Shown: positions 16,274 to 56,100 of the stretch, one piece after another
How positions within the stretch are numbered: position 1 is the stretch's first letter
Layout: each line of letters starts with the position of its first letter
Assembly (NCBI RefSeq): GCF_024502345.1
Contig: NZ_JALDNN010000002.1
DNA: 64,000 nucleotides
From: Escherichia coli
Lineage (GTDB): Bacteria > Pseudomonadota > Gammaproteobacteria > Enterobacterales > Enterobacteriaceae
Reading direction: 5' to 3' (one strand)
Position numbers and translations under genes: made by a program
The notes under the pieces: model-generated
What the model was told of the DNA's origin: nothing
The model's database searches: none
Seen by the model: the letters and a program-made list of their open reading frames with translations, nothing else

Positions 16274-16281
16274 GGTGATTT

Positions 16282-17279: not shown

Positions 17280-17400
17280 GTTCCAGAGAGGGATCTGTGA
17301 CAAAACGCCCTTTCAGTGTGACAAATCACCCTCAAATAGCCGCCATTTCTGTGACAAGTTGCCCTTAACCCTGTGACAAATTGCCCTCAGGAAGCGTTGC
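17280..17400. promoter_or_regulatory. F-type (RepFIA-like) iterons, orphaned: four TGTGACAA[AT]T.GCCCT repeats
   Basis: ctgtgacaaaacgccc / gtgtgacaaatcaccc / ctgtgacaagttgccc / ctgtgacaaattgccctcag at about 22-bp spacing; no rep gene adjacent. Confidence 0.65.
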
Positions 17401-17529
17401 TTTTCACAAAGTTATCCATCCCTGTTGACTCTGTTTTATGAAGTGTGACAATCTTAAAGTCTGTCACACTTCGCATGGACCTGTCATGGCGGAAATAGCG
17501 GTTATAAACCATAAAAAACGTAAAAATAG

Positions 17530-18446: not shown

Positions 18447-20583
<2,137 letters not shown>

Positions 20584-21070: not shown

Positions 21071-23084
21071 GATAACGAGCTTTTCCATTAGGCAGCTGTT
21101 AGCAAATCACGCCTCCTATCAGATCCCTATGTATCAGCGTAACTATGCGTGGGAAAAAGGCGAAATTGATCAGCTGATTCAGGATGTTGTTGATTATCAA
21201 GTCCAAAAAAAGCCTTACTACATCGGCAGCTTAGTGGTGTATCCACGGGATAATCAGCTATTTGAAGTGATTGACGGCCAGCAACGCTTTACCACGCTCA
21301 CGCTAATTGCTTTATGTTTGAAGCACTTCAGCATGTTGGCTGAAAAAGAAGGGACAACGTCTGTTAATAAAGTTGACATGAGTTGGTATCAAACGCCTAA
21401 TTTATGCTTTGAAAGCCGCGCTAACTCAACCCTCACCCTTGAAAAAATAACAGCCTTTAGCGCCTCTACTGCTAAGCATTTGTCACTAGATCCAGCCGAT
21501 ATTAATCAGTGCAACAGCGCTATTTTAAATGGCTTTAACTTGGTGCAGCAGGCGTTATCTGAGCTTGCTAAACAGCATGACCTACATCAGTTTTGTGAGT
21601 ACTTATTTGATTGGGTAAAAATCACCCGCGTCCCCGTTCCCCACGACACTGATTTAACCCATTACTTTGAGGCGATGAATAATCGCGGGGAACAGCTAGA
21701 AAAACACGAAGTGCTAAAAGCCAGAATGCTCTCTGTGCTGCAAGATGCCAGCCACCAACACCCTGAGAATAAAAGCGCGCAGGAAGTGCTCAATAAAGTG
21801 TGGAATGCCTGCGCCAATATGGAGCGTTATGTGCAGTTTGGCTTTAACCCCATCGAGCGCCAGCAGATCTTTGGCAATGAGTGGCAAAAATTTACCGCTA
21901 ACAGCTTTACTGAGCTTCATCACGCGCTAATAGCCCCTGAAAACAGAGCAGCCAACACCACAGTCGACACTCATAGTGATGAGCCAGCCGCCAAATCACT
22001 GGCTGAAATGTTGAACACACCTTATACCGATAAACAGGCAGAAACAGATAAAAATCAACCATCGCCTGAACGCTTTAACAGCGTGATTAATTTTTCTAAC
22101 TTTTTATTGCAGGTCTTAAGGGTTTACAGCCAAAAAGACATTTCTTTGGACGATAAGCAGTTAATTGATCAGTTCGAAACGCATATTTTGCACGCAGACG
22201 AGGCAGCAGAAAAAGTTAAAGCGTTTGTGTTTGCCTTATTAAAATCCAAATACCTATTTGATCACTACGTGATAAAACGCGATGCGACGGCTCAGGACAA
22301 GTGGGGCATCAAGCAATTAAAACGCTATGAGCGCAATAGCCAAAGCTACGTCAATACCTTTGCCCAAAACGATCAGCCTGATACCACTCACTCGCAATTA
22401 AATCAGCGCATTGTTTTATTACTAAGCGCCTTTCATGTCTCTACGCCCACCATGAACTACAAGCACTGGTTAACCGGCGTTTTGCATATCCTGCATCAAC
22501 TGCACGCCAAGCAACTCGATGCAGACAACTATTTAAAGGCACTCGAAAAGCTCGCCAGAAGCTTTATCTATGGGCGTTATTTGGCTAAAACAGCGGCTGA
22601 TTATTACACACTGATTTTTGATAACCCGAAGGGCTATCAACCCTTAGCGGACACGTGTTTTTTACGGTGTCGCTTGCGCTATGGTTCGATTAAAAACAAC
22701 TTTGTATTTAACTATTTAGATTATTTGCTGTGGTGCACCACCCAAGATAAGGACCTGGTGTATCGTGAGTTTGAATTTAGTTTTAGAAGCTCGGTCGAGC
22801 ATTTCTACCCACAAGATCCCTACTCTGGCGAACCATTAGAGGATGGGCCTTTGCATAGTTTTGGTAACCTATGCCTAATTAGCCACAGCAAAAACTCTAA
22901 GCTCAGCAACTACCAACCCACGGCTAAAAAAGAGCACTTTCAAGCAGCCAGCACCCAAGGCAAAATCGACTCACTCAAGCTGTATGAAATGACTCGGGTT
23001 AAAGTATGGGATGCAGATGCTATCCACAAGCATGAAACCCAAATGCTGGGATTGTTTATTAAGGATTCTGAGGGAGAAAAATGA
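21054..23084 (+). CDS. GmrSD-like type IV restriction / DUF262-DUF1524 protein
   Basis: 676 aa; N-terminal DUF262 signature (...VIDGQQRFTTLTLI...), C-terminal DUF1524-like His-Me region (...SVEHFYPQDP...). Confidence 0.75.
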   Translation: MSNPNKITSFSIRQLLANHASYQIPMYQRNYAWEKGEIDQLIQDVVDYQVQKKPYYIGSLVVYPRDNQLFEVIDGQQRFTTLTLIALCLKHFSMLAEKEGTTSVNKVDMSWYQTPNLCFESRANSTLTLEKITAFSASTAKHLSLDPADINQCNSAILNGFNLVQQALSELAKQHDLHQFCEYLFDWVKITRVPVPHDTDLTHYFEAMNNRGEQLEKHEVLKARMLSVLQDASHQHPENKSAQEVLNKVWNACANMERYVQFGFNPIERQQIFGNEWQKFTANSFTELHHALIAPENRAANTTVDTHSDEPAAKSLAEMLNTPYTDKQAETDKNQPSPERFNSVINFSNFLLQVLRVYSQKDISLDDKQLIDQFETHILHADEAAEKVKAFVFALLKSKYLFDHYVIKRDATAQDKWGIKQLKRYERNSQSYVNTFAQNDQPDTTHSQLNQRIVLLLSAFHVSTPTMNYKHWLTGVLHILHQLHAKQLDADNYLKALEKLARSFIYGRYLAKTAADYYTLIFDNPKGYQPLADTCFLRCRLRYGSIKNNFVFNYLDYLLWCTTQDKDLVYREFEFSFRSSVEHFYPQDPYSGEPLEDGPLHSFGNLCLISHSKNSKLSNYQPTAKKEHFQAASTQGKIDSLKLYEMTRVKVWDADAIHKHETQMLGLFIKDSEGEK

Positions 23085-23377
23085 GTAACGTCGGCCAGCG
23101 TGAACGCATGACCCAACAGCGCATTGTTGAGCTGTTTCAAACGGATTTAGGCTACCGCTATTTAGGTAACTGGGAATACCGCGATAACAATAAAAACATA
23201 GAAGTTGAGCTACTAACGAGCTGGCTGAAAAAGCGCGGCATAAGCGAGGCGCTGATTAATCGCGTGATTCGTCAGCTAGACAGCGCAGCGGCGCTGGGCG
23301 AAGGTAAAAAGCTCTATTACGCCAACAAAGAGGTTTATCGCCTGCTGCGTTACGGCGTGAAAGATAAAGAAGGTGCT
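23081..23377 (+). pseudogene. hsdR: type I restriction enzyme HsdR, N-terminal part (gene split by IS30)
   Basis: MSNVGQRERMTQQRIVELFQ...; frame continues in phase across the IS30 insertion to 24599. Confidence 0.85.
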
Positions 23378-24598
23378 TGTAGATTCAATCTGTCAATGCA
23401 ACACCCCTTTCAATTATCTCTTTCGGTGTTTTGAACTTCAGTGTCTTTCTCGGTCTGTTGTTTAGCTGAGCAGCAACCAGATCTAGTTCATGTTGAGTAT
23501 ATTGGGCAAGACATGTCTTTTTAGGAAAGTACTGCCGAATTAGCCCATTTGTGTTCTCATTTGTTCCCCGCTGCCAAGGACTCTGAGGATCGCAGAAGTA
23601 AACTTTAACGCCGGTGCTGACAGTAAATTCTAGATGTCTGGCCAGTTCCATTCCTCTGTCCCATGTCAGTGATTTTCTGAGTTCTGACGGTAAACTCAGG
23701 AATTTGTCGGTAAGAGCCTGATTTACTGAGACAGAATCTTTGCCCCTGAGTCTAAGGATGATCGTATAACGTGATTTTCGGTCTACAAGTGTGGCTATAT
23801 GAGAGTTTTTTGTACCTGAGACTAAATCGCCCTCCCAATGCCCCAGAGAGCGTCTGTTATCGATATTTCGGGAACGTTCGTGAATTGGTGTTCCGTTCAC
23901 TATGTTAATCGTACCTCTTTCGCCTTTGCGGGTATGACGCCTGCCATGGCGAAGGCTATGCGACCGTCGCAGATGCTGTATATTCAGGTGGTGTAGCGCT
24001 TCACGGCTACGAAAGTACAGCGTTTTATAAATTGTCTCAGGTGATATTCGCAGCGTTTTTTGACGTGGTTTTGTTCGCCTTAACCATCCTGATATTTGCT
24101 CTGGAGACCATTTCATCTCCAGCTTTTCCAGAACAAGCTTTCGCAATGGTAAATTTTGATCCAGTAAGCACGGTTTTGGCCTTTTCGCCATTCTGTTGGC
24201 TCGGTTATTAGCATCAACAGCTTTGTAATAGCGTCTGCCCCGATTACGCTGAACTTCACGTGAGATCGTCGAAGGACTGCGATTCAGCGCAGTAGCTATC
24301 GCACGAATGCTCATTTTGGCTGACAAACCAGCTCGTATCTCCTCGCGCTCAGACAGTGTCAGGTGAGCTACAGCCCGCTTACGCTCATGGGGTTTTATGC
24401 CGCCAGTATCCCTTAACATAGTGAAGATCGTTCCGGGTTTTGAACCCAGGATATTCGCTATTTCACTGAAGCCTGTTCCGTTCTTCCATAGTTCAAAAAC
24501 AGAGGCTTTTTCCTCTGCTGTAAATGTTCGTCTCATTCAAAAAACCTCCGCAACCCCATGTTTTCACATAACTGTTGCGTTGACCAATTGAATCTACA
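23378..24598 (-). mobile_element. IS30 copy 2 (1221 bp) inserted in hsdR with 2-bp target duplication CT
   Basis: IS30 IRs at both ends; ct at 23376-23377 and 24599-24600. Confidence 0.95.
23385..24536 (-). CDS. IS30 transposase
   Basis: 383-aa ORF identical in the track to copy 1. Confidence 0.95.
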   Translation of the reverse strand: MRRTFTAEEKASVFELWKNGTGFSEIANILGSKPGTIFTMLRDTGGIKPHERKRAVAHLTLSEREEIRAGLSAKMSIRAIATALNRSPSTISREVQRNRGRRYYKAVDANNRANRMAKRPKPCLLDQNLPLRKLVLEKLEMKWSPEQISGWLRRTKPRQKTLRISPETIYKTLYFRSREALHHLNIQHLRRSHSLRHGRRHTRKGERGTINIVNGTPIHERSRNIDNRRSLGHWEGDLVSGTKNSHIATLVDRKSRYTIILRLRGKDSVSVNQALTDKFLSLPSELRKSLTWDRGMELARHLEFTVSTGVKVYFCDPQSPWQRGTNENTNGLIRQYFPKKTCLAQYTQHELDLVAAQLNNRPRKTLKFKTPKEIIERGVALTD

Positions 24599-27396
24599 CT
24601 GGCCATCTTAATGAAACCGTGTGGCTGATTGACTGGAAAAATCCAGAAGCAAACGATTTTGCCATTGCCGAAGAAGTCTCTATCAAGGGTGAAAACAAAA
24701 AATGCCCAGACATAGTGCTGTATGTCAATGGTATCGCTCTAGGTGTGATTGAGCTGAAACGCTCTTCGGTGTCTGTCTCTGAGGGTATTCGCCAGAACCT
24801 CGATAACCAAAAGAAAGATTTTATCCGTAACTTCTTCACCACCATGCAATTGGTGATGGCGGGTAACGACACGCAAGGCTTGCGTTACGGCACGATTGAA
24901 ACCCCGGAGAAGTATTATCTTGAATGGAAAGAAGAGATAGAGAACGGGTATAGCCATAAGCTCGACTTTCACCTGAGCCGCGTATGCAATAAAGCGCGTT
25001 TTTTACAGATCATCCACGATTTTATTGTTTTCGATGCGGGTATTAAAAAGACCTGTCGTCACAATCAGTTCTTTGGTATTGAAGCGGCAAAACGCCATAT
25101 CGCAAGGCGTGAAGGCGGCATTATTTGGCATACGCAAGGTTCTGGCAAAAGCCTCACTATGGTGTGGCTGGCCAAATGGATACGTGAAAATGTCAAAGAC
25201 GCCCGTGTATTGATCGTGACCGATCGTACCGAGCTGGATGAGCAGATAGAAAAAGTATTCACCGGTGTTGAGGAAGATATTTATCGCACCAAAAGCGGTG
25301 CCGATTTGGTGGCGACGCTCAATCAGCCCAACCCTTGGTTGGTATGCTCTTTAGTCCATAAATTTGGTCGGCAGTCTGATTCGGAAAACGATACCGCGAC
25401 GGATGAGTTTATTGCCGAGTTAAAGAAATCCCTACCATCGGACTTTAAAGCCAAAGGTGACCTATTCGTATTTGTTGATGAATGCCACCGTACTCAATCG
25501 GGCAAGTTGCACGAAGCGATGAAGTCCATTCTGCCAGAAGCCATGTTTGTCGGCTTCACCGGCACCCCCTTGATGAAGAAAGACAAGAAAAAATCGGTTG
25601 AGGTATTTGGCCCTTACATTCACACCTATAAGTTTGATGAAGCTGTGGCCGATGGCGTTGTGCTCGATTTACGCTACGAAGCACGAGACATCGACCAAAA
25701 TGTCACGTCGCAGAAAAAGGTCGATGAATGGTTTGAAGCCAAAACTCGCGGCTTATCTCGATTAGCGAAAACCCAGTTGAAACAGAAATGGGGCACCATG
25801 CAAAAGGTGCTGTCCAGTAAATCGCGTTTGCAGCAGATTGTGAATGATATCTTGCTGGATATGGACACTAAGCCACGCCTGATGGATGGCTACGGCAATG
25901 CCATGTTGGTCTGCTCTAGTGTCTATCAAGCTTGTAAAGCTTATGAAATGTTCAGCCAAACAGATTTAGCCGGCAAGGTGGCTATTGTCACCAGTTTTCA
26001 GCCGACCGCTGCGAGCATTAAAGGGGAAGAAACCGGTGAAGGCTTAACGGAAAAGCTCTTTAAGTACGATATTTACCGCAAAATGCTTGCGGATTACTTC
26101 GAGCAACCGGAAGACAAGGCCGCTAACCGAGTTGAAGAGTTTGAAAAAGAAGTTAAAAAACAATTTATTGATGAGCCAGGGCAAATGCGCTTGCTCATCG
26201 TGGTCGATAAGTTGCTGACTGGCTTCGACGCCCCTTCGGCTACCTATTTGTATATCGACAAACAGATGGCTGATCACAATCTGTTTCAGGCCATTTGCCG
26301 CGTGAACCGCTTGGATGGCGATGATAAAGAATACGGTTACATCATTGACTACAAAGATCTGTTCCGCTCGTTGGATAAAGCGATTTCTGATTATACTCAA
26401 GGCGCATTTGATGGTTATGACAAGGAAGACGTTGCAGGGCTGCTGAAAGATCGTTTAGAGCAAGCCAAGCTCGATTTGGATAATGCGCTGGAAATGGTGC
26501 GCGCCTTGTGTGAGCCGGTAAAAGCGCCACGCAACACGGAAGACTACATTTATTATTTTTGTGGTAAGTCAGGTCTGAACCAAGACGAGCTCACCGAGAA
26601 AGAAGCACTGCGTTTAACGCTTTATCAGAACGTTGCCAAACTGCTGCGTGCGTTCGCCAATATCGCCAATGAAATGCCTGATGCAGGCTATTCTGCGCAA
26701 GATGTAGACTCGATAAGAACAGAAGTGGCTCATTTTGAAAAAGTCCGTGACGAAGTAAAACTGGCCAGTGGCGATTTGGTAGAAATGAAACGCTTTGAGC
26801 CTGCGATGCGCCATTTGTTAGATATGTATATTCGTGCGGATGACAGCGAAGTACTGATGGATTTTGAAGAGCTGGGGCTTATTGAGCTCATTGTCGAAAA
26901 AGGCGCTGATGCCGTGGAGGCTTTGCCTGATAGTATTCGCAAGAATCAGGAAGCCATGGCCGAAACCATCGAAAATAACGTGCGTAAAACCATCGTTGAT
27001 GAAAACCCGGTTAACCCCAAGTATTACGAGCAAATGTCGGTGTTATTGGATGAGCTGATTGAGCTTCGTCGCCAAAAAGCGATTGAATATCAAGAGTATT
27101 TGGAAAAAATCCGCGAGCTGTCTCGTAAGGTTATACGTCCGGAGCAGACAGCGGCTAACTATCCGCCATCGATGGACTCTAATCCAAAACGCGCGTTTTA
27201 CGATAATTTTGGTCAAGATGAATTGCTGGCTACCAAAATAGATAGTGCCATTCGTTATACCAAAAAAGCGGATTGGGTCGGAGATCGCTTTAAGGAGCGA
27301 GAAATTGCCAATGCGGTGCGAGAAGAAACGACGGGGTATGAGGTGGATATTCAGGGTGTAATGGAATTGGCAAAAGCGCAAAAAGAGTACCATTGA
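24599..27396 (+). pseudogene. hsdR: HsdR C-terminal part (nuclease and SF2 helicase domains)
   Basis: PD-(D/E)xK-like ...PDIVLYVNGIALGVIELKRS..., Walker A ...HTQGSGKSLT..., DECH box ...FVFVDECHRTQ... Confidence 0.85.
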
Positions 27397-28109
27397 TGCC
27401 TAAGGTAGAAATTGGTTCTATTGCGATGCAGTTAAATCGTAAGGCAATTAAAAACCTTCATATCAGCGTGTTGCCACCTGATGGGCGTGTGCGTGTTTCT
27501 GCTCCTGAATCTATGACAGAAACCGCAATCCGTATGGCAGTGATCAGCCGCATTCCTTGGATCAAGAAACAGCAGAGTGTTTTTGCCAAACAACCTCGCC
27601 AATCTGATCGAGCAATGGTTAGCGGTGAATGTCATTACCTGTGGGGCAGGCGTTATCGTCTGAATCTTATCGAGCGTTCCGGAAAGCATGAAATCAAGCT
27701 AGGTCGTGGTCGATTGCATTTATATGTCAATCCCGCAACAACGCTTGAGAACAAGGCACTGGTACTGAACTCATATTATCGAGATGCACTTAAAACGCGA
27801 ATCGCTGAGTTATTGCCTGTTTGGGAAGATAAGATCGGCGTTAAAGCTGTAGATTGGGGAATTAAAAAGATGAAAACCAAGTGGGGCAGCTGCAATATTC
27901 AGGCAAAGCGCATTTGGCTAAATTTAGAGCTTGCTAAAAAGCCACCGGAGTGTTTGGAGTACATCCTAGTGCATGAATTGGTGCACTTGCTTGAGCGTAA
28001 TCACAATGAACGCTTCAAGGGGTATATGGACAAGCTACTTCCCGATTGGCGAGAGCGCAGAGATTTGTTGAAGCGGATGCCCTTGGCGCACAACGATTGG
28101 GTGTACTAG
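27393..28109 (+). CDS. DUF45/M48-family zinc metallopeptidase (YgjP-like), commonly linked to hsdR
   Basis: 238 aa; HExxH motif ...ILVHELVHLLERNH...; 4-bp overlap with hsdR stop. Confidence 0.75.
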   Translation: MMPKVEIGSIAMQLNRKAIKNLHISVLPPDGRVRVSAPESMTETAIRMAVISRIPWIKKQQSVFAKQPRQSDRAMVSGECHYLWGRRYRLNLIERSGKHEIKLGRGRLHLYVNPATTLENKALVLNSYYRDALKTRIAELLPVWEDKIGVKAVDWGIKKMKTKWGSCNIQAKRIWLNLELAKKPPECLEYILVHELVHLLERNHNERFKGYMDKLLPDWRERRDLLKRMPLAHNDWVY

Positions 28110-28452
28110 GAAAATTATGCAGAGTTTGCATGGTTAGCCTGATTATGTATGTGGCGCGTAATTTGAGATAAACTTGATAGTAAAAGCGGGAAATGGATTT
28201 CATTTCTCCGATATTTTGCTCAGGTGCTGTCGCTAAAAGTGTCAAGATTCTATCTTTACGCTTGGCGGCCAATACTCCCGCAGTACCTACCCAGAAAATA
28301 GCCAATATTGGGATCAACTTAACAGTTTTGGCTTTGTTTATTATAAAAACCAGCACTTTCAATTAGTTGAATGGTTTATTCGCTAGTTTATGTGAACTAC
28401 CATTTTGAGAGGGCTGAAAGTTGCTCGATTACTTAAAAATAACTTTACCTAA

Positions 28453-29646
<1,194 letters not shown>

Positions 29647-29739
29647 CTAATTGGTGTAAAAAAATGGGCGCAACAAAGCGCCCCAACAATAGAGTTTCAA
29701 ATTAATAAAAAGGTAATAAATAACATGAAGTTAAATTGA

Positions 29740-29764
29740 GAAGAGGCAATTTTATTGCCTCTTC
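29740..29764 (-). terminator. candidate intrinsic terminator downstream of the porin gene
   Basis: Perfect hairpin gaagaggcaat-ttt-attgcctcttc 3' of the minus-strand stop; a second IR (atatgcggg...cccgcatat) lies at about 29790-29830. Confidence 0.4.
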
Positions 29765-29839
29765 AAAGGTGGCATGAGGGTGCCACCTATATGCGGGCAG
29801 TGACATCACTCCCTTCCCGCATATTCTTACCTACCAAAA

Positions 29840-30952
29840 TTAGAATTGGTAGGTCATACCAACAGCAACGATGTTGTCGGTTGCAACGCCAGATTTTTTG
29901 GTAAAATCACTTTCATCGATCAGGTTGATCTTATAGTCAACGAAAGTGGACATATTCTTGTTAAAGTAATAAGTCGCGCCCACGTCGATGTATTCAACCA
30001 GATCCTGGTTACCGAACGCACCAATATTTTCACCGCGAGAGTGTAGGTAAGCGATGGACGGACGCAGGCCGAAATCAAACTGGTATTGAGCAACGGCTTC
30101 AAAGTTTTTCGCCTTGTTCGCGATATGGTCATCACCGAAGACTGTCATATTCTGAGTTTCAGAATAAGTTGTAGCCAGGTAAATGTTGTTTGCATCATAT
30201 TTCAGGCCCGTAGCCCATACTTCAGCAGTTTTACCAGAGGCATTCAGAGGGCTGGCTTTAGCATAGGATACCTGTCCATCAGTACGGTCAGATTTTGCAT
30301 AGGTTGCAGCAACGCCAAATCCTTCATAATCGTAAGTAGCTGACAGACCAAAGCCATCACCATTAGATTCAACTTCGTCGCGGCCTTTCCAGTTGTTCGC
30401 TTTTGCAGCACTATCATTTTTACCTTGATACTGCAAAGCAAAGTTCAGACCATCAACCAAGCCGAAGAAATTATTGTTACGATAGGTCGCGACGCCAGTA
30501 GCACGCTGGGTCATAAATACATCAGTCTGAGTCCAGGTATCTCCACCAAACTCCGGCAGCACGTCAGTCCAAGCGCCAACATCATAAGCTACACCGTAGT
30601 TGCGACCATAGTCGAGCGAACCATAATCGCCAAAGCGAAGCCCTGCAAACGCAAGACGAGTTTTATCTTTATCAGAACCTTCAGTTTCAGAACGGTTACC
30701 TTTAAATTCGTACTCCCACTGACCAAAACCGGTTAACTGGTCATTAATCTGAGTTTCACCTTTGAAACCCATACGAGCATAAGTTTTATCCCCGTCATCA
30801 CTAGCTGAAGAAGAGAAGTAATGCTTTGCATTAACTTTGCCGTACAGATCCAGTTTGTTACCGTCTTTGTTATAGATTTCTGCCGCTTGTGCAGACATTG
30901 CCATCAGGACTGATGCTGCAACCGCAGAAAGTGCCACTGTGATTTTTTTCAT
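29840..30952 (-). CDS. general outer-membrane porin (OmpC/OmpF/PhoE family)
   Basis: 370 aa; signal peptide [23 protein letters not shown]; [17 protein letters not shown]... and C-terminal ...VAVGMTYQF. Confidence 0.9.
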
Positions 30953-31502
30953 TTTTTTTCCTTTAGATTGAACTTTTCAACAGAAAAGAAGTCACTTAGG
31001 GAAGATGTTTATCTTTTTTTGATTTGCATTTCAAGTTTTTTAAATAAATATCGAGATATTTTCGTTATCATGATCACGAAAACACTGATGTAGCCCCCTG
31101 AAACACCGGACAGTAGCTGTATCTCCAGATAAGAGATAGGCTTGAATATATGTCTAACACTAACGCCAATTTTGAGATGACCGGGATCCTGTTAGGGCAA
31201 GAAGTCCGTAAACGTAAAACTCCTCAGGAGAAGATCGCCATTATCCAGCAGACGATGGAGCCGGGTATGAATGTCTCCCATGTCGCCCGCCTGCATGGTA
31301 TCCAGCCCAGCCTGCTGTTTAAGTGGAAGAAGCAATATCAGGAAGGCAGCCTCACCGCCGTTGCGGCTGGAGAGGAAGTCGTTCCTGCTTCTGAGCTTAC
31401 TGCTGCTCTGAAGCAGGTCCGGGAGCTTCAGCGCCTTCTGGGCAAGAAAACGATGGAAGTTGAGATCCTGAAAGAAGCCGTGGAGTACGGTCAGTCGCGA
31501 AA

Positions 31503-33024
<1,522 letters not shown>

Positions 33025-33321
33025 CTAATTTTTCAATTCAGTATTCGACATACTCAGACCATCTTTAGACATCATTGATTATATTTCCTTCAATGAAGGG
33101 CTTCCTCGCTATATTACCAACAAGATTGGTTGAAACTCCATCAAAAGCCTCACCAATAACTCAGCCTACACGAGGGATCGTTTTACCTGAGTTAATTGCA
33201 CCTTTATCACCAAATTTAGCGAGTAGTCTGCAACTTATATATAATAACTCCGTTAAATGAATATCCAGACTGTGAATTGCTTACTTTACCTCATAACTGA
33301 GCGTATAAGCAGACGGTTCCT

Positions 33322-33948
33322 TCAGGTCAACCTGCTTTGATAAGTGCGAACTGCAGTGTTCAGTTCATTAACATAGCGCTCAAATTCACCGACGGCATAC
33401 ATCAGAAACCGATCATCCATAAGTATGTCATTAAACATGTTAATTGACACACCGGCGTTCTCAGCCATCGCACGAGGAATAGCACGCAGGAGAGGTTTTT
33501 CATATTCAGTTTTTTTTGTTTTTTTACAGGAAAGAGTCTTATAATCTTCTGCAACACCATCGCTATGAGCCATGATGTTTCGGATAACAGCCAGGTGATC
33601 GACATCCTTGATGCTTTTACCGCCGAAGTTGCGCTTGAGACGCTTGTGGCAATCTTCAATGGTCTTGCGCGTTTTGTCTGTGGTCTTGCTTGAAAGGTCG
33701 TCCATTAGTGCGAGGCAATCAACCATACGGTGTTCGAACAGACCAAAAATGGTAAGAAATACGGAGCGGCGGGTCAGCTGCACGATCAGATGTTTGTATT
33801 CAGACCTAACTTCATCTTCATCATAGCCAAAGCACGAACCGCATGAATAGTAAGTACTTGGAAGCGTTGTAATTCGACCATCTTCATGATGTTGTTCATC
33901 CGGAAATTCCCCAGACTCAACGGCTTCTGGCTTATCAGCATCAATTAG
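33322..33948 (-). pseudogene. C-terminal fragment of a HEPN-like domain protein, 5'-truncated by IS26
   Basis: Non-IS part of the chimeric 405-aa track ORF; R-x4-H motif in ...HLAVIRNIMAHSDG... Confidence 0.45.
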
Positions 33949-41919: not shown

Positions 41920-42302
41920 TAACTGAGTATTTTTGAATAGCGACGCTGGATGCCGATTGGTCTGAACGGCCCGGCGATCGCCGGGCATACCATTGGCGCC
42001 GGCATCGTGCTGGTAACGACCATATTAGGGCGTTTGAGCAGTTGCCTGGCCTCACGCAGGGAGACTGGATTAACTGACCGCTGACAAAATGCCTGACAAT
42101 GACAGTCCGTTTTGTGCCAGATATAGTCATTCACACCCTGAGAGTTACACTTTTAAGTGATTCAGGGTATGCGCTTATTGGTTACGAATATTGTGCCAGA
42201 ATCATGTGATTCGATGATTGCCGCTTTGCTTTCGAGCCAGTAAGTGCTCCACGTTCGCTAACGAATACTCAGGGCATGCAGAAAAACGGTAATGACTCCA
42301 AC

Positions 42303-42806
42303 TTATTGATAGTGTTTTATGTTCAGATAATGCCCGATGACTTTGTCATGCAGCTCCACCGATTTTGAGAACGACAGCGACTTCCGTCCCAGCCGTGCCA
42401 GGTGCTGCCTCAGATTCAGGTTATGCCGCTCAATTCGCTGCGTATATCGCTTGCTGATTACGTGCAGCTTTCCCTTCAGGCGGGATTCATACAGCGGCCA
42501 GCCATCCGTCATCCATATCACCACGTCAAAGGGTGACAGCAGGCTCATAAGACGCCCCAGCGTCGCCATAGTGCGTTCACCGAATACGTGCGCAACAACC
42601 GTCTTCCGGAGCCTGTCATACGCGTAAAACAGCCAGCGCTGGCGCGATTTAGCCCCGACGTATCCCCACTGTTCGTCCATTTCCGCGCAGACGATGACGT
42701 CACTGCCCGGCTGTATGCGCGAGGTTACCGACTGCGGCCTGAGTTTTTTAAATGGCGGAAAATCGTGTTGAGGCCAACGCCCATAATGCGGGCGGTTGCC
42801 CGGCAT
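42303..42806 (-). CDS. insB: IS1 InsB
   Basis: 167-aa ORF. Confidence 0.9.
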
Positions 42807-43000
42807 CCAACGCCATTCATGGCCATATCAATGATTTTCTGGTGCGTACCGGGTTGAGAAGCGGTGTAAGTGAACTGCAGTTGCCATGTTTTACGGCAGT
42901 GAGAGCAGAGATAGCGCTGATGTCCGGCGGTGCTTTTGCCGTTACGCACCACCCCGTCAGTAGCTGAACAGGAGGGACAGCTGATAGAAACAGAAGCCAC
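42725..43000 (-). CDS. insA: IS1 InsA
   Basis: 91-aa [25 protein letters not shown]... Confidence 0.95.
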
Positions 43001-43073
43001 TGGAGCACCTCAAAAACACCATCATACACTAAATCAGTAAGTTGGCAGCATCACCCCCGGTAATGACTCCAAC

Positions 43074-43577
43074 TTATTGATAGTGTTTTATGTTCAGATA
43101 ATGCCCGATGACTTTGTCATGCAGCTCCACCGATTTTGAGAACGACAGCGACTTCCGTCCCAGCCGTGCCAGGTGCTGCCTCAGATTCAGGTTATGCCGC
43201 TCAATTCGCTGCGTATATCGCTTGCTGATTACGTGCAGCTTTCCCTTCAGGCGGGATTCATACAGCGGCCAGCCATCCGTCATCCATATCACCACGTCAA
43301 AGGGTGACAGCAGGCTCATAAGACGCCCCAGCGTCGCCATAGTGCGTTCACCGAATACGTGCGCAACAACCGTCTTCCGGAGCCTGTCATACGCGTAAAA
43401 CAGCCAGCGCTGGCGCGATTTAGCCCCGACGTATCCCCACTGTTCGTCCATTTCCGCGCAGACGATGACGTCACTGCCCGGCTGTATGCGCGAGGTTACC
43501 GACTGCGGCCTGAGTTTTTTAAATGGCGGAAAATCGTGTTGAGGCCAACGCCCATAATGCGGGCGGTTGCCCGGCAT
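43074..43577 (-). CDS. insB: IS1 InsB
   Basis: 167-aa ORF identical to copy c in the track. Confidence 0.9.
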
Positions 43578-43771
43578 CCAACGCCATTCATGGCCATATC
43601 AATGATTTTCTGGTGCGTACCGGGTTGAGAAGCGGTGTAAGTGAACTGCAGTTGCCATGTTTTACGGCAGTGAGAGCAGAGATAGCGCTGATGTCCGGCA
43701 GTGCTTTTGCCGTTACGCACCACCCCGTCAGTAGCTGAACAGGAGGGACAGCTGATAGAAACAGAAGCCAC
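43496..43771 (-). CDS. insA: IS1 InsA
   Basis: 91-aa ORF identical to copy c. Confidence 0.95.
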
Positions 43772-43807
43772 TGGAGCACCTCAAAAACACCATCATACAC
43801 TAAATCA

Positions 43808-44805
<998 letters not shown>

Positions 44806-44830
44806 TTAGTTTGATCGACTTTAGCCATAT

Positions 44831-45633
44831 TCAATAATCCTTCAAGAGCACTTTATTTGCCAAAGTATTGAACACATCCTGACGGTGGCATGTAAACATA
44901 GTGTCGTAACGCAGTAATTCCATTAAAACGTCACTAACTTTACCCAAACGAATATCGGCAGATATTTCGTATGCCCAAGCAAATACCTTTGATTTTAGCG
45001 TAGCACTGTCATCCCCCAGACCTGGCGTAAAGGGAATTGTTCGTGGAAAGAGAACGACATCATTAATTAATTTAAGTGATGACATCCCGACATCTTTTAT
45101 TGCCTCCACGGTGGTAGGTTTTAATCCAAAAAAGATACTAACAAACTCAGGTGCAAGCATTGACATAAAGAAAACTTGCATTAAGTAATCATTTTGAATG
45201 TCTACACACTTAGAACGTAGTTGCTGAATTTTTCTCGGATTATAAAATTCCTCCTGCCCGCTGAGCAAAGTTACTTTTTCACCTTCATTGTAAATGCCGA
45301 AGTCAGTATCTTCACTGTCATATTCTCGAATGACGTTAGTGTCGCCATCAACTACAGCTACAAAGAATTTGTCCCAAGAGATCTCTTTACTTAAAGAACG
45401 AGGAACGAGGAAGCTTCCTGGCCGAGTTTCAACTTCAAATGCATTATCAATCATAGCTCCAAATCCATTACCAAATAGTCGGCGTTGGAGGAGTGGTGAT
45501 CCAGTTTGATACTTAGAAGATCCATGAAGAGGCAATAACATTAAGAAGGCACGGTAACTACGAATAATCGAAATCTCGGTACGTAATAGTTTACCGAGTA
45601 AGTTACGCGTGATGTTATCTGATTCTGACATGT
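44831..45633 (-). CDS. hypothetical protein (267 aa), no recognised family
   Basis: ATG at 45633 preceded by AAGGA RBS; long ORF with coding-like composition; possible D...E-x-K segment (...FVAVVDGD...NEGEKV...). Confidence 0.6.
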
Positions 45634-45954
45634 GCGGATTGTCCTTGCGCCAATACAATTGTACGAATCTTCTACATGAAATTAAGGTCTGGATTCTGAA
45701 GGATGAAAAGTAACTTTTGGAATTTTAATACTGCCGCTTTGAACCTTAAAACTAACCTTTCAGCCATTACCCATACTTGTAACACTTTTTAACCAAACTA
45801 ACCAGAATTTTATCAAAAAACCCTGACCTTGCTAACGAAATGTGAACCGTATAAAAAAACCTCAAAGCCTGAGTCGTTATCGGCATTAAGTAGCAATAAC
45901 CTTAGGGAAAAATGCGCGTAAGCATGATTATTTTTTCGATTGTTTAACATGACT

Positions 45955-46130
45955 ACTACATAGGGTCACTTTTTGCTGAAAAGTGGCCCTATGCACCATC
46001 GACATAGGGTCACTTCTTGATGAAAAGTGACCCTATGTAATCACGACATAGGGTCACTTTTTTTAAAAGTGGCACTATGCGTCAAAATCATAGGGTCACT
46101 TTCCTTTAAAAAGTGGCACTAGATAGATGT
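45955..46130. repeat. array of four imperfect ~35-bp palindromes (CATAGGGTCACTTTT ... AAAAGTGaCCCTATG) at about 44-bp spacing
   Basis: Directly visible; lies between the divergent 267-aa gene and the 46389 operon. Confidence 0.9.
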
Positions 46131-46388
46131 ATAACTTAGTAGGTAAAACAGTTCTTTTCAGATCACGATCTCAGCAATAAGCATTGCTGGAAAAGTTACT
46201 TTTCTTCCACGATAAAATGCGGACCTTTTGGCCGTTCCCGTTTACATCTGATGTCACTCACTCTCAGTGCTTCCTCCATTCTTAAATTTGCCATGCAAAA
46301 TTCTCGAAAAAATTCACAGAAAAAAGTCCCGTTCGTGAAAAAAAATTGAAAATCACTTCGGTATAGTGATTTCACATCAGGAGGCCCC

Positions 46389-46874
46389 ATGTCTAAATCG
46401 AAGCTATTAAAGTCATTAGAGATTTCACGTACTTTATTGCGCTCACAAATCGATGTTCTTCGAGAAGAGGCTGAAGAACTGATCACCAATTATTGGATCG
46501 AGTGGAAAGAACGGAATCACATTGAGAGGAATTTACCCAGGGATAGCAAAACTCTAAAGAAGGAGTATCTGGGTTCATATGCACCAAAAGTTGAGCTAAT
46601 TGGTAATGCCAGGAAAGTCACCATTACCTGGCATCAGTTTAGCCCGTATAAAAACAGGCCACCTAGTCACATGTCGAAACGGATTTCACCGATGAAAAGT
46701 GGAAAATATACGAAAAGCTGCTTTGTTAATCATGCCAGCTGGGAATATGAAATGATTGAAAAAACGGAGGGATTACTGGAACCCTACAGAGAATTACTTG
46801 AGTTCTACCATGCTGCATATATCGAACTGGGACGAAAAGTCCGTCAATACTCAAAATCAGAGGTGGCACAATGA
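46389..46874 (+). CDS. hypothetical protein (161 aa)
   Basis: AGGAGG RBS 7 bp upstream; no recognised family. Confidence 0.6.
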   Translation: MSKSKLLKSLEISRTLLRSQIDVLREEAEELITNYWIEWKERNHIERNLPRDSKTLKKEYLGSYAPKVELIGNARKVTITWHQFSPYKNRPPSHMSKRISPMKSGKYTKSCFVNHASWEYEMIEKTEGLLEPYRELLEFYHAAYIELGRKVRQYSKSEVAQ

Positions 46875-47189
46875 CCGATGTAACAATGAATGAAAGCGAG
46901 CATAAGGTACCTGACGTAAATACCCGCTCCCCTCATGCGTCCGATAATAGCCGTAGGGTCGTGCAAAGTAAAAATGAACATTACGGCATGGCTACAGTAA
47001 CTATTACCCCAGGCACGCCAGACTTTAACCGATTTCTCACGGCACGTAATCGTTCCGTAATAAGAGGGTTTGATGATGTCAGTATTGCCATTTCATCCTT
47101 ATTCAGAACGGTCAATGCAGTTAAGCACCCCGAACTAGTGCAGGCAATTCAAGACTGGTTCAATGAATTGCACGAAGAAAATAATCTAA
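46871..47189 (+). CDS. hypothetical protein, 3' end disrupted or capped by ISKpn26 copy E
   Basis: Start overlaps upstream stop (ATGA); frame runs into the IS left end at 47190. Confidence 0.5.
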
Positions 47190-48385
<1,196 letters not shown>

Positions 48386-48472
48386 ATAGCTAAACATGAT
48401 TTCCCCATCAAACAGTAAGTCGTGTCAATTCCTAGAGTTAACACATTTCTGATCATGACTCACACGTTACGT

Positions 48473-48709
48473 TCAGTCGGTAGCCATCTGTGCAAAAAAT
48501 GCGCTTAGCGTAGGATAATTTCCTTTTTCCAAGCGGACCCCATGAACATCTTCCGGACTGCAATGTTGAAGCCTGAGCCAGCGAAGAATATTTTCAACTG
48601 AATGTCTGTTATTCTGGATGTTACGGGTTTTTATGCGTCCTTTGATACCGTCATAAAGCATGCAAAGATCCAGGTTTTTTTTACTTACGTCAATGCCGAC
48701 TGGAAACAT
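48473..48709 (-). pseudogene. IS110-family transposase N-terminal fragment
   Basis: MFPVGIDVSKKNLDLCMLYDG... Confidence 0.6.
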
Positions 48710-48939
48710 GGTCAAACTCCTCTCACATAAACCGTCACGCCTGTTCGCCTTGTACATACGGAGTCGAGCTCCCGGTAACCGTTCAACCTGATGTGCTGGC
48801 GTGAAAGGTGAAGCGGAGGGCCATGTGCTGCAAATCAAGGTTCAGCGGTGCCGACTTTTCTGACCTTAAGGGAAGGGGGCAGCTCACTCTGCTTCAGTGG
48901 TGGTAGCTAATCACCACAAACTGTTAGATACAAGCCACC

Positions 48940-49329
48940 GTGGCGGATGTCACCCAGGTCGACAAGCTGCTGCACGGCGACGAGAACGTCGTCTGCGCCG
49001 ATGACGGTTACACAGGCGTCGAAAAGCGCTCCGGGCATGCCGACCGAGAAGTGATCTGGCAGGTCGCAGCACGCCGCAGCACCTACAAGATGCTCGATAA
49101 ACGCAGCGCCCTGTACAAAGCCAAGCGCAAGATCGAGAAGGCCAAGGCGCAAGTGCGAGCGAAGGTAGAGCCCCCGTTTCGCGTGATCAAGCGGCAGTTC
49201 GGCTACACCAAGGTACATTTCCGAGGGCTGGTGAGGAACACTGCACAACTGGTGACGCTGTTTGCCCTGTCGAACCTATGGATGGCCCGCCGACATTTGC
49301 TGGCAAGCGCAGGAGAGGTGCGCCTGTAA
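48940..49329 (+). pseudogene. C-terminal fragment of an IS5-family (DDE) transposase
   Basis: ...VEPPFRVIKRQFGYTKVHFRGLVRNTAQLVTLFALSNLWMARRHL... mirrors the IS5-family C-terminal block. Confidence 0.6.
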
Positions 49330-49494
49330 TTCGGAAAATGGCCGTCGCAAGGTGCTCGCGACGGCTGAAAGCACCGAAATGAGCGGGTGATCCGATCGTT
49401 TTTGATCGGTTCACCGCTTTCAAAATCAGCAGTGGCTGAAGTCAGCCGGAAATACAGGGCTACTTCAGACCATCCCTAGCTAGGGCTCGTAGTT

Positions 49495-49532
49495 GGGGTC
49501 GGTTCCGGCTGAGGGCGAAATGACACCCTAAG
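49495..49532. repeat. Tn3-family 38-bp terminal IR (GGGGTCGGTTCCGGCTGAGGGCGAAATGACACCCTAAG) overlapping tnpA stop
   Basis: GGGG...CTAAG architecture with the tnpA stop codon inside the IR. Confidence 0.7.
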
Positions 49533-52419
49533 CTTTCGGTTCCTTGGGCCAAAGATATTCGCCAGTCAGTAGAATGTGCGCCCAGCCCAATGGGGATATG
49601 TGGGGAAGAAATTCAGGGGGAACATCCAACCCTTCGTTCCGCCGCTCCGTGACGGCATGACCAAGATGGACGGTATTCCAGTAAATGATCACCGCAGTCA
49701 ATAAATTGAGCCCAGCGATTCGGTAGTGCTGCCCCTCTGTCGTGCGATCGCGAATTTCCCCCTGCCTCCCGATACGGAGCGCATTTTTGAGCGCATGGTG
49801 GGCCTCTCCCTTGTTAAGACCGATCTGAGCACGCCGCTGCATGTCCGTATCCAGGATCCACTCAATAATGAAAAGGGTCCGTTCAATACGACCAACTTCA
49901 CGAAGCGCAACTGCAAGGTTGTTTTGTCGTGGGTAAGAAGCGAGCTTGCGCAGGAGTTGGCTGGGCCTGATTTTGCCAGCGGTCATCGTCGCGGCACAAC
50001 GGAAAATATCAGGCCAGTTCGCAACGATAAGATCCTCCCGGGCTTTTCCACCTACCAACTTGCGTAACTCCCTGGGGGTCGTATCGGGATTAAATACGTA
50101 CAACCGCTTCGATGGCAGATCCCTGATTCGCAGAACGAGATTGTAGCCGAGCAGGCTACTGGCTCCGAACAAATGGTCGGTGAATCCTGCTGTATCGGCA
50201 TACTGTTCGCGAACATGGCGACCGACCTCGTTCATCAGTAGTCCATCGAGAATATACGGTGCCTCGCTCACGGTCGCCGGGATCGACTGACAAGCGAATG
50301 GCGCGAACTGGTCGCTTACGTGAGTATACGCTTTGAGGCCGGGAACAGAACCATATTTGGCATTGACCATGTTCATGGCTTCGCCATGCCGCGCTGTCGG
50401 GAAAAACTGACCATCGCTCGATGCTGACGTGCCCATCCCCCAGACGCGTGACATCGGCAGTTTACCCTGCGCGGCCACCACAATTGCCAATGCCTGGTTC
50501 ATGGCTTCGCTTTCAACATGCCAGCGGGCAAGGCGTGAGAGCTGCCAGTAATCATGCGTGTTTGTAGCTTCCGCCATCTTACGCAGGCCCAGATTGAGCC
50601 CTTCAGCGAGCAGGACGTTGAGCAGACCGATCCGGTCGCGACATGGAGCCCCGGTTCTCAGATGGGTAAACGCATCTGTGAAACCAAGGGCTGCATCAAC
50701 TTCAAGCAGCATGTCGGTAATCCGAACGGACGGCATTCGGCGATACAGATCCAGTATGAGTGCCTCGGCACCATCCGGCACGTCTGCTGTCAACCTGTCG
50801 ATCCGCAACGTTCCATCTTCTATGCTACCGTGCGGAATAGTGCCGTTACGGGCAGCCCGGGCCAGCCGCTTAAGAGCGATCGTGAGTCGCGCCTTTCTGT
50901 CTGCCAGCCAATCCTGTGGGTTGGAAGGCACGGCCAGTTTTGCATTTTCCTGCGCCGCGATCATCGGCACCAGTACCTGCTTGAGGTCACCATAGCGGCG
51001 CGAATGAGCGAGCCAGACATCTCCGGAACGAAAAGCATCCCGGAGGTGAAAGAGTACCGCCACTTCCCAAAGACGGGTATCTCCTTTTTCCTGAGCTCGT
51101 AAATGACGGTTCCATTTGGAGCTGGGCCGCAGGAAACGCCTTTCTGGCGATGCAACACCTTTCATCTCTCCGATCGACAAAGCTGCTGCTACCAATGGTC
51201 CGGCGACCGGCGCGGCTTCGAGCTTCAGACAGCGCAACATGCGGGGCGCATAACGACGAAAGCGATGGTATCCCTGCCCGACATATGCAAGAGGCTCATC
51301 GGCTAGCGTGTTGCTGAGTTGAGTCCCTGTCGCTACCAGTTGAGCGAGCCGGTCCCATGCAACCGAACTGGCGACAGCCATCTCCAGCGGGGTTCCGTCA
51401 CTGCGGGCCTCAAGCAACGAAGCTCCCAGCGCGGTGAAGGTACGGATCGTATCCGTGAGTGTGGCTTTAGAGCCGGAAATTGTTTCGTCATGCTGGCGCT
51501 TCGCTTCCCGCCAGGTTTTTCCTACGATCCTGTCATGGGTTTCGACTATGGCATCAGCAATCGCCGCTTCCCACTCCACAACACAGACGGCAAGGATCGC
51601 CCAGCGGCGGTCCGAAGTGATGTCACGCAAACCGTCGGTGAAGTAGCGTTCACCCTGCCGACGCAGCCGGGCAATGCGATGGGCAGGTATGCTGGCCAAA
51701 GCACTATGATTGATATTCAGGGTACGCAGAAATTCGAGCCTGTCGAGCAAACGGTTAGCAGCAGCCGAGTTGTTACCAACCTCGAAGTTGCGAAGCCAGA
51801 TGAAACGACTGATATTGCCGGCGAGCATTTCACTCAGAAGTTTGTCCAGGTGATCGCGAACATCCGCTGTTAAATTTTCCGCAATCCGCGTTTCAATCCG
51901 CCGCTCAGCGGCGACCAGAGCATCCGCGCACAAGCGCTCGATTGTCGATACTGCGGGCAGAATGGTGGAAGTTTCCCGACACCGCACAATAAAACGATGA
52001 GCAAGATCCTCGTTTGATCTGGCATCTTCGGCCTGGCCGAAAGTCCACTCCCGCAGATCACGGGCACCACGGCCCGTGAAGGTCTTGTAGCCGTAAATTT
52101 CGCGCAGCGTGTCCATGTGCTGCTGACGGGTTTGGCGCCGTGTGGCATAAGTGAGAAGCGCATCAGCCGGAACTCCAAGCTGAGCACCGACGAAGGAAAG
52201 GACTTCACGCGGGATCATCTCACCAGGAGCCAGTGCACGGCCCGGATATCGTAAGGCACAAAGTTGCAGGGCAAAGCCAATCCTGTTTTCCGGTCTGCGG
52301 CGCTGCCTAATGTTTTCCAGGTCATCATCGCCCAGCGTGTAGAACTTCAGTAGCGACAGTTCGTCCGTGGGCAGATCGAACAGCGCTGCTCGCTGCCGTT
52401 CGGTGAAAATATGGCGTCG
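49528..52419 (-). pseudogene. tnpA: Tn3-family transposase TnpA, 5'-truncated by IS26 (about 960 of ~1000 codons remain)
   Basis: 896-aa track ORF with upstream frame open to the IS26 boundary; conserved C-terminal blocks (...GMGTSASSDGQFF..., ...LSPLGWAHILLTGEYLW...). Confidence 0.9.
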
Positions 52420-53239
52420 GGCACTGTTGCAAAGTTAGCGATGAGGCAGCCTTTTGTCTTATTCAAAGGCCTTACATTTCAAAAACTCTGCTTACCAGGC
52501 GCATTTCGCCCAGGGGATCACCATAATAAAATGCTGAGGCCTGGCCTTTGCGTAGTGCACGCATCACCTCAATACCTTTGATGGTGGCGTAAGCCGTCTT
52601 CATGGATTTAAATCCCAGCGTGGCGTCGATTATCCGTTTCAGTTTGCCATGATCGCATTCAATCACGTTGTTCCGGTACTTAATCTGTCGGTGTTCAACG
52701 TCAGACGGGCACCGGCCTTCGCGTTTGAGCAGAGCAAGCGCGCGACCATAGGCGGGCGCTTTATCCGTGTTGATGAATCGCGGGATCTGCCACTTCTTCA
52801 CGTTGTTGAGGATTTTACCCAGAAACCGGTATGCAGCTTTGCTGTTACGACGGGAGGAGAGATAAAAATCGACAGTGCGGCCCCGGCTGTCGACGGCCCG
52901 GTACAGATACGCCCAGCGGCCATTGACCTTCACGTAGGTTTCATCCATGTGCCACGGGCAAAGATCGGAAGGGTTACGCCAGTACCAGCGCAGCCGTTTT
53001 TCAATTTCAGGCGCATAACGCTGAACCCAGCGGTAAATCGTGGAGTGATCGACATTCACTCCGCGTTCAGCCAGCATCTCCTGCAGCTCACGGTAACTGA
53101 TGCCGTATTTGCAGTACCAGCGTACGGCCCACAGAATGATGTCACGCTGAAAATGCCGGCCTTTGAATGGGTTCATGTGCAGCTCCATCAGCAAAAGGGG
53201 ATGATAAGTTTATCACCACCGACTATTTGCAACAGTGCC
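52420..53239 (-). mobile_element. IS26 copy 3 (820 bp), transposase variant, no TSD
   Basis: 14-bp IRs; flanks tggcgtcg vs gcgagaag. Confidence 0.97.
52472..53176 (-). CDS. tnpA: IS26 transposase variant (M58I, G184D relative to copies 1 and 2)
   Basis: ...[10 protein letters not shown]... and ...[10 protein letters not shown]... versus ...APEMEK... / ...KRIIGATLGF... Confidence 0.95.
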
Positions 53240-54471
53240 GCGAGAAGGTTTTCAGGCCGGATTTGCGCGGCAAACCTGTCGTCGTTCTCAGTAACAACGA
53301 TGGCTGCGTTATTGCCCGGAGTGCTGAAGCCAAACGGCTGGGTATAAAGATGGGAACCCCCTGGTTCCAGCTCAAAGAGGCGCAGTTTCCTGAAAAATTG
53401 TACGTTTTTTCCAGCAACTACGAGCTCTACGCGAGCCTGAGTAACCGTGTGGTCGCCCTGCTGGAAGAGCTGTCGCCCCGCGTCGAACAATACTCAATTG
53501 ACGAATGTTTCCTGGATGCCCGGGGAATTGGCCACTGTATGGATCTGGAGGATTTTGGCAGGCAGCTGCGTGGGCATGTTCTCAGTGGAACCGGACTGAC
53601 GATCGGTGTCGGCTTCGGCGCCACAAAAACACTGGCCAAATCGGCGCAGTGGGCGTCAAAGGAATGGCCACAATTCAGTGGGGTGCTGGCGCTGTCGCCC
53701 GAAAATCCACGCAGAACGGCAAAATTACTCAGCCTGCAGCCGGTGGAAGAAATCTGGGGCGTAGGGAACCGGATAGCGAAAAAGCTGCACGTTATGGGGA
53801 TCACCACTGCCCTGCAGCTGTCGCTGACGAACCCTACATTTATCCGGAAAAACTTCAACGTAGTGCTGGAGCGCACGGTACGTGAGCTGAACGGCGAGAG
53901 CTGCATTTCGCTGGAGGAAGCGCCGCCGCCGAAACAGCAGATTGTCTGCAGTCGCAGCTTCGGGCAGCGGATCACCACCTACGAAGAAATGCGCCAGGCC
54001 GTCTGCCAGTATGCCGAGCGCGCGGCGGAAAAGTTGCGCGGTGAGCGACAGTACTGCCGGCATATCAGCACCTTCATCAAGACATCCCCTTTTGCGGTTA
54101 ATGAGCCGTATTACGGTAACGTGGCCACGGAAAAACTGAACACCCCTACCCGTGACACCCGGGACATTATCGCGGCAGCGGTCAGGTCTCTGGACAGGAT
54201 CTGGCTCGATGGCCACCGCTACGCAAAAGCGGGGATAATGCTCAATGATTTCAGTCCGAACGGCGTCGCGCAGCTGAATCTGTTCGATGACGTGCAGCCA
54301 CGGCCGCACAGCGATGCGCTGATGAAGGTACTCGACGGCATTAATCATTCCGGACTCGGGAAAGTCTGGTTTGCCGGACGGGGTATTGCGCTGGACTGGC
54401 AGATGAAACGGGAGATGCTGTCACCGGCATATACCACCCGCTGGAAGGAGCTGCCGGTTGCCCGTTTCTGA
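53240..54471 (+). pseudogene. umuC: second UmuC-family Y-polymerase gene, 5'-truncated by IS26 (no umuD partner)
   Basis: Reading resumes at ...[20 protein letters not shown]... right at the IS26 end; about 16 N-terminal codons missing. Confidence 0.9.
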
Positions 54472-55633: not shown

Positions 55634-56100
55634 GTGCCGACGATGCAGGTGGGACCGTGGTCCCAGGCAGATTACCTGACCGACGATGCAGGTGGGACCG
55701 TGGTCCCAGGCAGATTACCTGACCGATGACGCAGGTGGGACCGTGGTCCCAGACAGATAACCTGACCGACGACGCAGGTGGGACCGTGGTCCCAGACAGA
55801 TTACCTGACCGATGACGCAGGTGGGACCGTGGTCCCAGACAGATAAGCTGACCGATGACGCAGGTGGGACCGTGGTCCCAGGCAGATAACCTGACCGACG
55901 ACGCAGGTGGGACCGTGGTCCCAGTCAGATAACCTGACCGATGACGCAGGTGGGACCGTGGTCCCAGACAGATTACCTGACCGACGACGCAGGTGGGACC
56001 GTGGTCCCAGGCAGATAACCTGACCGATGACGCAGGTGAGACCGTGGTCCCAGGCAGATAACCTGACAGACGATGCAGGTGGGACCGTGGTCCCAGAGAG
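55634..56100. repeat. sopC: sopC-type centromere: about 11 tandem 43-bp repeats each with TGGGACCGTGGTCCCA inverted repeat
   Basis: Tandem units ...cgatgcaggtgggaccgtggtcccaggcagattacctgacc... Confidence 0.9.

Follow-up and report, generated by a model that had tools for sequence, protein, structure and literature searches.

Positions 48473-52419 of a 64,000-nucleotide stretch of Escherichia coli DNA (contig NZ_JALDNN010000002.1; the whole stretch is termed the window) harbor a truncated copy of the Tn3-family transposon Tn5403 in direct contact with a copy of the insertion sequence IS26. The region probably is a mosaic of inactive mobile-element remnants that accumulated in layers, the arrival of Tn5403 having been followed by a deletion mediated by IS26. 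The carrier is a plasmid of IncFIA/FIB type related to that of E. coli AW1.7, and the oldest layer of the mosaic is a scar that normally borders tLST/LHR, the heat-resistance island that the AW1.7 plasmid carries.

The Tn5403 remnant and its junction with IS26

The remnant occupies 49495-52419 on the minus strand and corresponds to positions 1-2925 of the ~3,664 bp of Tn5403. The terminal inverted repeat (IR) at the tnpA end, GGGGTCGGTTCCGGCTGAGGGCGAAATGACACCCTAAG, is a 38-bp Tn3-family IR of the GGGG...TAAG type that is intact and uninterrupted at 49495-49532 (plus strand) and is the same 38 bp as the IR of a complete Tn5403 copy. The generic pattern GGGG-N30-TAAG is not rare, with three occurrences in the window compared to 1.44 expected. 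The IR and tnpA are continuous over 2,924 aligned bases with 99.9% identity, three mismatches and no gaps to the complete annotated Tn5403 on a plasmid of Klebsiella pneumoniae MGH 39. The first-pass annotation of the window, made from the letters alone, had recognized a Tn3-family remnant with a 38-bp IR overlapping the end of tnpA, and the alignment upholds both assignments: the TAG stop codon of tnpA (49528-49530) falls within the IR. The bases adjacent to the outer end of the IR are TAGTT; as a single end of Tn5403 is present, no 5-bp target duplication is found around the element.

The tnpA gene (49528-52419, minus strand) lacks its first two codons (ATG TCA), and its frame is free of stops for 963 codons, as far as 52419. 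The product matches Pfam DDE_Tnp_Tn3 (PF01526, E 2e-130) and DUF4158 and scores 981 bits with NCBIfam NF033527, the Tn3 transposase models being matched over their full length. Intact TnpA (about 965 aa) begins MSRRHIF and the version in the window begins RRHIF, which places IS26 six nucleotides inside the gene. The truncation of the 5′ end of tnpA by the third IS26 copy in the window, as first proposed, is confirmed. This copy (52420-53239, minus strand) is 820 bp long with 14-bp ends GGCACTGTTGCAAA and a single transposase gene. Tn5403 is laid out as IR, tnpA, res, divergent tnpR and second IR, and the remnant has lost 739 bp in all: the first 6 nt of tnpA together with res, tnpR and the second IR. 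A comparison of Tn5403 positions 2926-3664, which span res, tnpR and the second IR, with the whole 64-kb window gave no match, in keeping with the earlier remark that neither a resolvase gene nor a res site was visible. Thus, judged by its sequence, the element is Tn5403, and it is a remnant rather than a complete member of the family.

The first possible in-frame start of the truncated tnpA is Met69 at 52218, from which 896 codons are open. Upstream of the gene, an in-frame stop lies five codons into IS26, and a search within IS26 for the start of an IS26-TnpA fusion found no start codon before Met69. Neither a promoter nor a terminator was predicted over the IS26/tnpA junction, and an Rfam scan of 47000-53500 (E up to 1) gave a chance snoRNA match only. 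With one IR, no tnpA start codon or promoter and no resolution system, the remnant is predicted to be unable to transpose. In other members of the Tn3 family a single IR is known to confer target immunity and one-ended transposition is known to occur, though rarely, and the IR here is intact and followed by the long frame from Met69. The solo IR, possibly with a shortened TnpA initiated at Met69, might therefore confer immunity to incoming Tn5403 or support one-ended transposition with transposase supplied by an intact Tn5403 elsewhere in the cell. Residual activity of either kind is improbable, as a protein initiated at Met69 would lose the N-terminal part of the DUF4158 domain, no promoter-like site occurs at the junction, and the other IR, res and tnpR are missing from the window. 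Were it present nonetheless, a seemingly dead remnant would shape the later evolution of the plasmid.

On its other side IS26 adjoins umuC, which encodes a subunit of DNA polymerase V. The gene (53240-54471, plus strand) is without ~14 N-terminal codons and aligns with positions 15-422 of the 422 in NF002955. The bases flanking IS26, TGGCGTCG and GCGAGAAG, do not form an 8-bp target duplication, as expected following deletion or recombination. An inversion or translocation partner on the replicon would be apparent as an IS26 with 8-bp flanks CGACGCCA or CTTCTCGC; when the three IS26 copies of the window were compared by their 8-bp flanks, in direct and reverse-complement orientation, none matched. 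The IS26-umuC junction is common to the plasmids pKFu015_2 (99.97% over an 11.6-kb flank) and pRT18-1_294k_tetX (100%), and umuC is the fixed anchor flank of this IS26 copy. An open reading frame (ORF) at 53167-54471 starts inside IS26 and reads in frame into the 5′-truncated umuC. Annotation of the sister plasmids treats the equivalent ORF as an intact Y-family DNA polymerase of 434 aa, and the truncation may be hidden in automated annotation by this IS26-umuC fusion.

The border block and a second Tn3-family inverted repeat

Between the Tn5403 IR and the sequences to its left lies a 953-bp block (48542-49494) that consists of an IS110-family fragment, an IS5-family fragment and an 18-bp spacer. 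The first-pass annotation had identified both fragments, and homology searches agree. The IS110-family part (48542-48935, minus strand, right boundary approximate) is the 5′ portion of an element, with codons 1-56 at 48542-48709 followed by ~225 bp of upstream non-coding end. The 56 residues are all identical (56/56) to the start of WP_001515743.1, a 331-aa IS110-family transposase, and match NF033542 and the DEDD N-terminal domain PF01548, the latter with an E value of 1.7e-4 that is below the curated cut-off because only 56 aa are left. Folding of the upstream non-coding end as a possible guide or bridge RNA was no better than that of shuffled sequences (z +0.95). The IS5-family part (48936-49476, plus strand) is a 3′ fragment in which the C-terminal 129 codons (48940-49329) are followed by a ~147-bp 3′ end; both boundaries are approximate, being set by the start of protein homology and by the stop-to-end distance of the neighboring IS5 copy. 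The coding portion matches DDE_Tnp_1 (PF01609; 62.9 bits, E 4.5e-17) at 48940-49326 and covers positions 179-285 of the 285 in the NF033581 profile, that is, its C-terminal part only.

The origin of these two fragments, which was missed initially, is apparent from related plasmids. The block is present at ~99-99.7% identity in 166 plasmid records (at least 80% query coverage), and in the records examined it leads directly into degP-GI, htpX, psiE-GI and kefB-GI. In the plasmids of AW1.7 and pKL53-L, tLST follows the block directly, without Tn5403, and only two of the border-block plasmids examined also have Tn5403 at the junction. Window positions 44806-49494 are equivalent to 14084-18765 of the AW1.7 plasmid at 99.8% identity. 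The shared segment includes mobI(A/C), a hypothetical gene, an IS5-like element, a 156-bp Tn3-derived end and the IS110- and IS5-family fragments. At the end of this segment the plasmid of AW1.7, a heat-resistant beef isolate, continues to degP-GI, whose stop codon is 59 bp further on, and into the ~15-kb tLST, whereas the window switches to the Tn5403 IR. BLAST comparison of the AW1.7 tLST (18766-33762) with the window gave no match, the border block alone being present, and the window does not hold the island genes (sHSP20-GI, clpK/clpG, kefB-GI, psiE-GI, degP-GI and others). Thus, 48542-49494 is a tLST border scar that predates Tn5403, and is not debris made by Tn5403.

The left edge of the block coincides with a second feature that had escaped notice, a further 38-bp Tn3-family IR, GGGGTCCGCTTGGAAAAAGGAAATTATCCTACGCTAAG, on the minus strand at 48504-48541 with its outer end at 48541. 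This outer end cuts the IS110 gene after codon 56. Position 48473, given initially as the start of the region, is not an element boundary; it is the stop codon of a chimeric ORF (48473-48838) in which the IS110 fragment is fused to the second IR. The IR belongs to the terminal 156 bp (48386-48541, minus strand) of a non-autonomous Tn3-derived element, a piece that diverges from three unrelated contexts precisely at the outer IR end. A 737-bp copy in p13k-GZ04 (record L012, 2421-3157) has the exact IR and an inverted copy of it without a transposase gene; the inverted copy carries one mismatch in 39 bp, the outermost base being C instead of G. No 5-bp duplication was seen around this full copy. 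The element is present over at least 80% of its length in 106 plasmid records and presumably can be likened to the TIME/MIC type of non-autonomous Tn3-derived elements. The IR at 48504-48541 agrees at 36 of 38 positions with that of an autonomous Tn3-family transposon in K. pneumoniae CP058753. The 737-bp element also encodes a 122-aa ORF which has no Pfam or NCBIfam match.

The left side of the 156-bp piece is cut by a 1,196-bp IS5/ISKpn26-like insertion sequence (47190-48385, minus strand) with ends GGAAGGTGCGAA... and ...TTCGCACCTTCC, whose flanks, CTAA and ATAG, do not represent a target duplication. In this copy, codon 45 of the transposase gene is a TAA nonsense codon (48183-48185; IEPF*PKAG). 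Sister plasmids have an equivalent copy that is annotated as intact (326 aa) and bears the PGAP name 'IS5-like element IS5 family transposase'.

The first-pass annotation linked the IS110-family fragments to elements of the IS4321/IS5075 type, which belong to the IS1111 group and target the terminal IRs of the Tn21 family (Partridge and Hall, 2003, as cited in PMC11187229), and thereby implied that the fragment beside Tn5403 had been drawn to its 38-bp IR. IS5075 does insert in Tn5403, as observed in 69 PLSDB plasmid records. In these, however, the insertion (record L003, 2011-3336) sits within tnpA at ~position 510 and not in the IR, at a site resembling the core of the Tn21 IR (GCGGCACAACGGAA^AATATCAGG; AACGGAAAATA), a core that Tn5403's own IR is without. 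The counterpart in the window at ~49990-50012 (near 50004) is empty and intact. Moreover, the full-length 331-aa relative of the IS110 fragment shares only 23% identity with the IS5075 transposase over 257 aligned residues in a partial alignment, and the coding fragment is 785 bp from the Tn5403 IR. All three Tn3-type IRs in the window, including those of Tn5403 and of the 156-bp piece, are uninterrupted 38-mers, none of which adjoins an IS110 end in the manner of IS4321/IS5075, whose insertions occupy a fixed position in a 38-bp Tn21-family IR. The polarity is the opposite of that proposed, as it is the outer end of an IR that cuts the IS110 gene, and the IS110/IS5 block was in place before Tn5403 arrived. 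IR targeting by an IS4321/IS5075-type element hence is very improbable here, and it is not implied by an IS110-family fragment lying beside a Tn3-family IR.

The additional IS110-like fragment noted at 14407-14709 is genuine (NF033542, E 1e-30) and is 51% identical to IS5075, but it is not beside any Tn3-type IR. Both IS110 fragments of the window are N-terminal pieces, between which no similarity is detectable. The fragment at 14407-14709 extends at the nucleotide level over 14379-14804, the 5′ 426 bp of another element, with 99.5% identity to many enterobacterial plasmid records.

Proposed history of the region

The order of events and their mechanisms are reconstructed from the identities, coordinates and junctions described above. 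The oldest layer would be the scar at one tLST/LHR border in which the 3′ end of an IS5-family element meets the 5′ end of an IS110-family element. Next, a small non-autonomous Tn3-derived element would have inserted in the IS110 gene after codon 56 and later have been trimmed to 156 bp by the IS5-like element. This arrangement is present already in AW1.7. In the third layer Tn5403 would have landed with its tnpA-end IR 59 bp from degP-GI, 18 bp past the end of the IS5-family remnant; it may have come by ordinary replicative transposition or may represent one junction of a cointegrate. Finally, the IS26 already located in umuC would have targeted the tnpA sequence between codons 2 and 3 in an intramolecular replicative transposition. 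This step would delete the intervening DNA, including the tnpA start, res, tnpR, the second IR and adjacent sequence, and leave a single IS26 that lacks an 8-bp duplication.

The later steps are informed by the sister plasmids. The junction of the border block with the Tn5403 IR is identical in pKFu015_2 and pRT18-1_294k_tetX. In pKFu015_2 the same IS26 abuts Tn5403 at position ~375 in inverted orientation, tnpR is retained, and a second, oppositely oriented IS26 is located at Tn5403 position ~217. The simplest reading is that the common ancestor possessed a complete Tn5403 flanked by the border block and the umuC-anchored IS26. From this one anchor IS26 would then have acted intramolecularly on two independent occasions, inverting DNA in pKFu015_2 and deleting it in the window. 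In pKFu015_2 Tn5403 is bordered by TAGTT on one side and ATCCA on the other, which do not constitute a 5-bp duplication. As these flanks are unlike, Tn5403 probably lies where two different DNAs were joined, whether at a cointegrate junction or by an intramolecular transposition deletion, and either event would account for loss of tLST. A simple deletion of tLST also was considered in which the IS26 at the far end of the AW1.7 island is the same umuC anchor. This candidate was rejected: the AW1.7 plasmid is without window positions 53240-53637, and its umuC region joins different DNA.

A number of points weigh against this reconstruction. The direct ancestor, in which the border block and IS26-umuC would enclose a complete Tn5403, was not found, and the history is drawn from three or four related plasmids only. 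The name Tn5403 derives from the PGAP label on near-identical copies and from the literature. The window is part of a replicon, and the presence elsewhere on it of the missing portion of Tn5403 or of tLST would signify an inversion or translocation. Furthermore, a one-step IS26 deletion and homologous recombination between two IS26 copies have the same sequence outcome.

In the recombination scheme, separate IS26 copies would have entered umuC and tnpA, the insertion in tnpA creating an 8-bp duplication of its own, and exchange between the copies would have left the observed product, one IS26 without a duplication. The many copies of IS26 in the plasmid lineage favor such an exchange. No relative was found in which IS26 is flanked by duplicated TGGCGTCG at the tnpA site, and neither the exact Tn5403/IS26 junction nor the whole configuration occurs in PLSDB or in the complete E. 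coli RefSeq genomes; the first of these results and the absence of the junction argue weakly against recombination, which is regarded as possible but rather unlikely. A deletion by IS26 following arrival of Tn5403 is the preferred account. Against these two collections the exact junction is new in the window, and its value is epidemiological only.

Other features of the window and relation to known elements

Several further features were observed. A classic Tn3/Tn2-type IR, GGGGTCTGACGCTCAGTGGAACGAAAACTCACGTTAAG, at 987-1024 (and 900-986) directly abuts a cut IS5 copy. Inside this IR the sequence presumably is unlike either end of Tn3, and the feature could be a further solo IR or a mini-element. 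At 13682-14180 a 37-bp repeat occurs in 13.5 copies (93% matches) after what seems to be the 3′ end of a replication-initiator gene cut by IS1; the array resembles the iterons of a remnant replicon, possibly IncA/C. The mobI(A/C) gene is at 46389-46874. Close to sopA and a parB/sopB-like gene, at 55637-56096, a 43-bp repeat is arrayed in 10.7 copies (94% matches) in what looks like a sopC-type partition centromere. Two IS1 copies are arranged head to tail (42287-43055 and 43058-43827) and are followed immediately by a partial IS5-like copy (43823-44809). A 495-aa ORF at 10980-12467 resembles a group II intron reverse transcriptase/maturase.

The families and processes represented at 48473-52419 are already known, and nothing there is likely to be active. 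The locus is a textbook case of the remodeling of enterobacterial plasmids by IS26 and Tn3-family elements, and its worth is mainly for annotation. Nevertheless, the junction at which the tLST border meets the Tn5403 IR is a lineage marker that links this plasmid to the AW1.7 heat-resistance plasmid family, to which pKFu015_2 and pRT18-1_294k_tetX belong, and it marks a lineage that lost the heat-resistance island where Tn5403 and IS26 acted.

In comparison with the 737-bp Tn3-derived element, the window retains one end only (156 bp). The IS110 fragment at 48.5 kb belongs to the same superfamily as IS4321/IS5075, the IS110-family DEDD transposases, but differs from these elements in its low identity, in its location outside an IR and in being cut to 56 codons. 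Tn5403, a cryptic Tn3-family transposon of Klebsiella (Rinkel et al., 1994, as cited in PMC5142620), is small and has no resistance genes (PMC5142620). The copy in the window shares with complete Tn5403 the IR sequence, the tnpA stop codon inside the IR and the DUF4158 and DDE_Tnp_Tn3 domains, whereas the tnpA start, res, divergent tnpR and second IR are absent. The closest precedents are pKpQIL-6e6 and pKPC-e4e, in which a truncated Tn5403 likewise immediately adjoins IS26 (He et al., 2016; PMC5142620). In pKPC-e4e the truncation was ascribed to an adjacent deletion mediated by IS26 after insertion of Tn5403 (He et al., 2016; PMC5142620). The window differs from both plasmids in the breakpoint, which is 6 nt into tnpA, and in the plasmid context.

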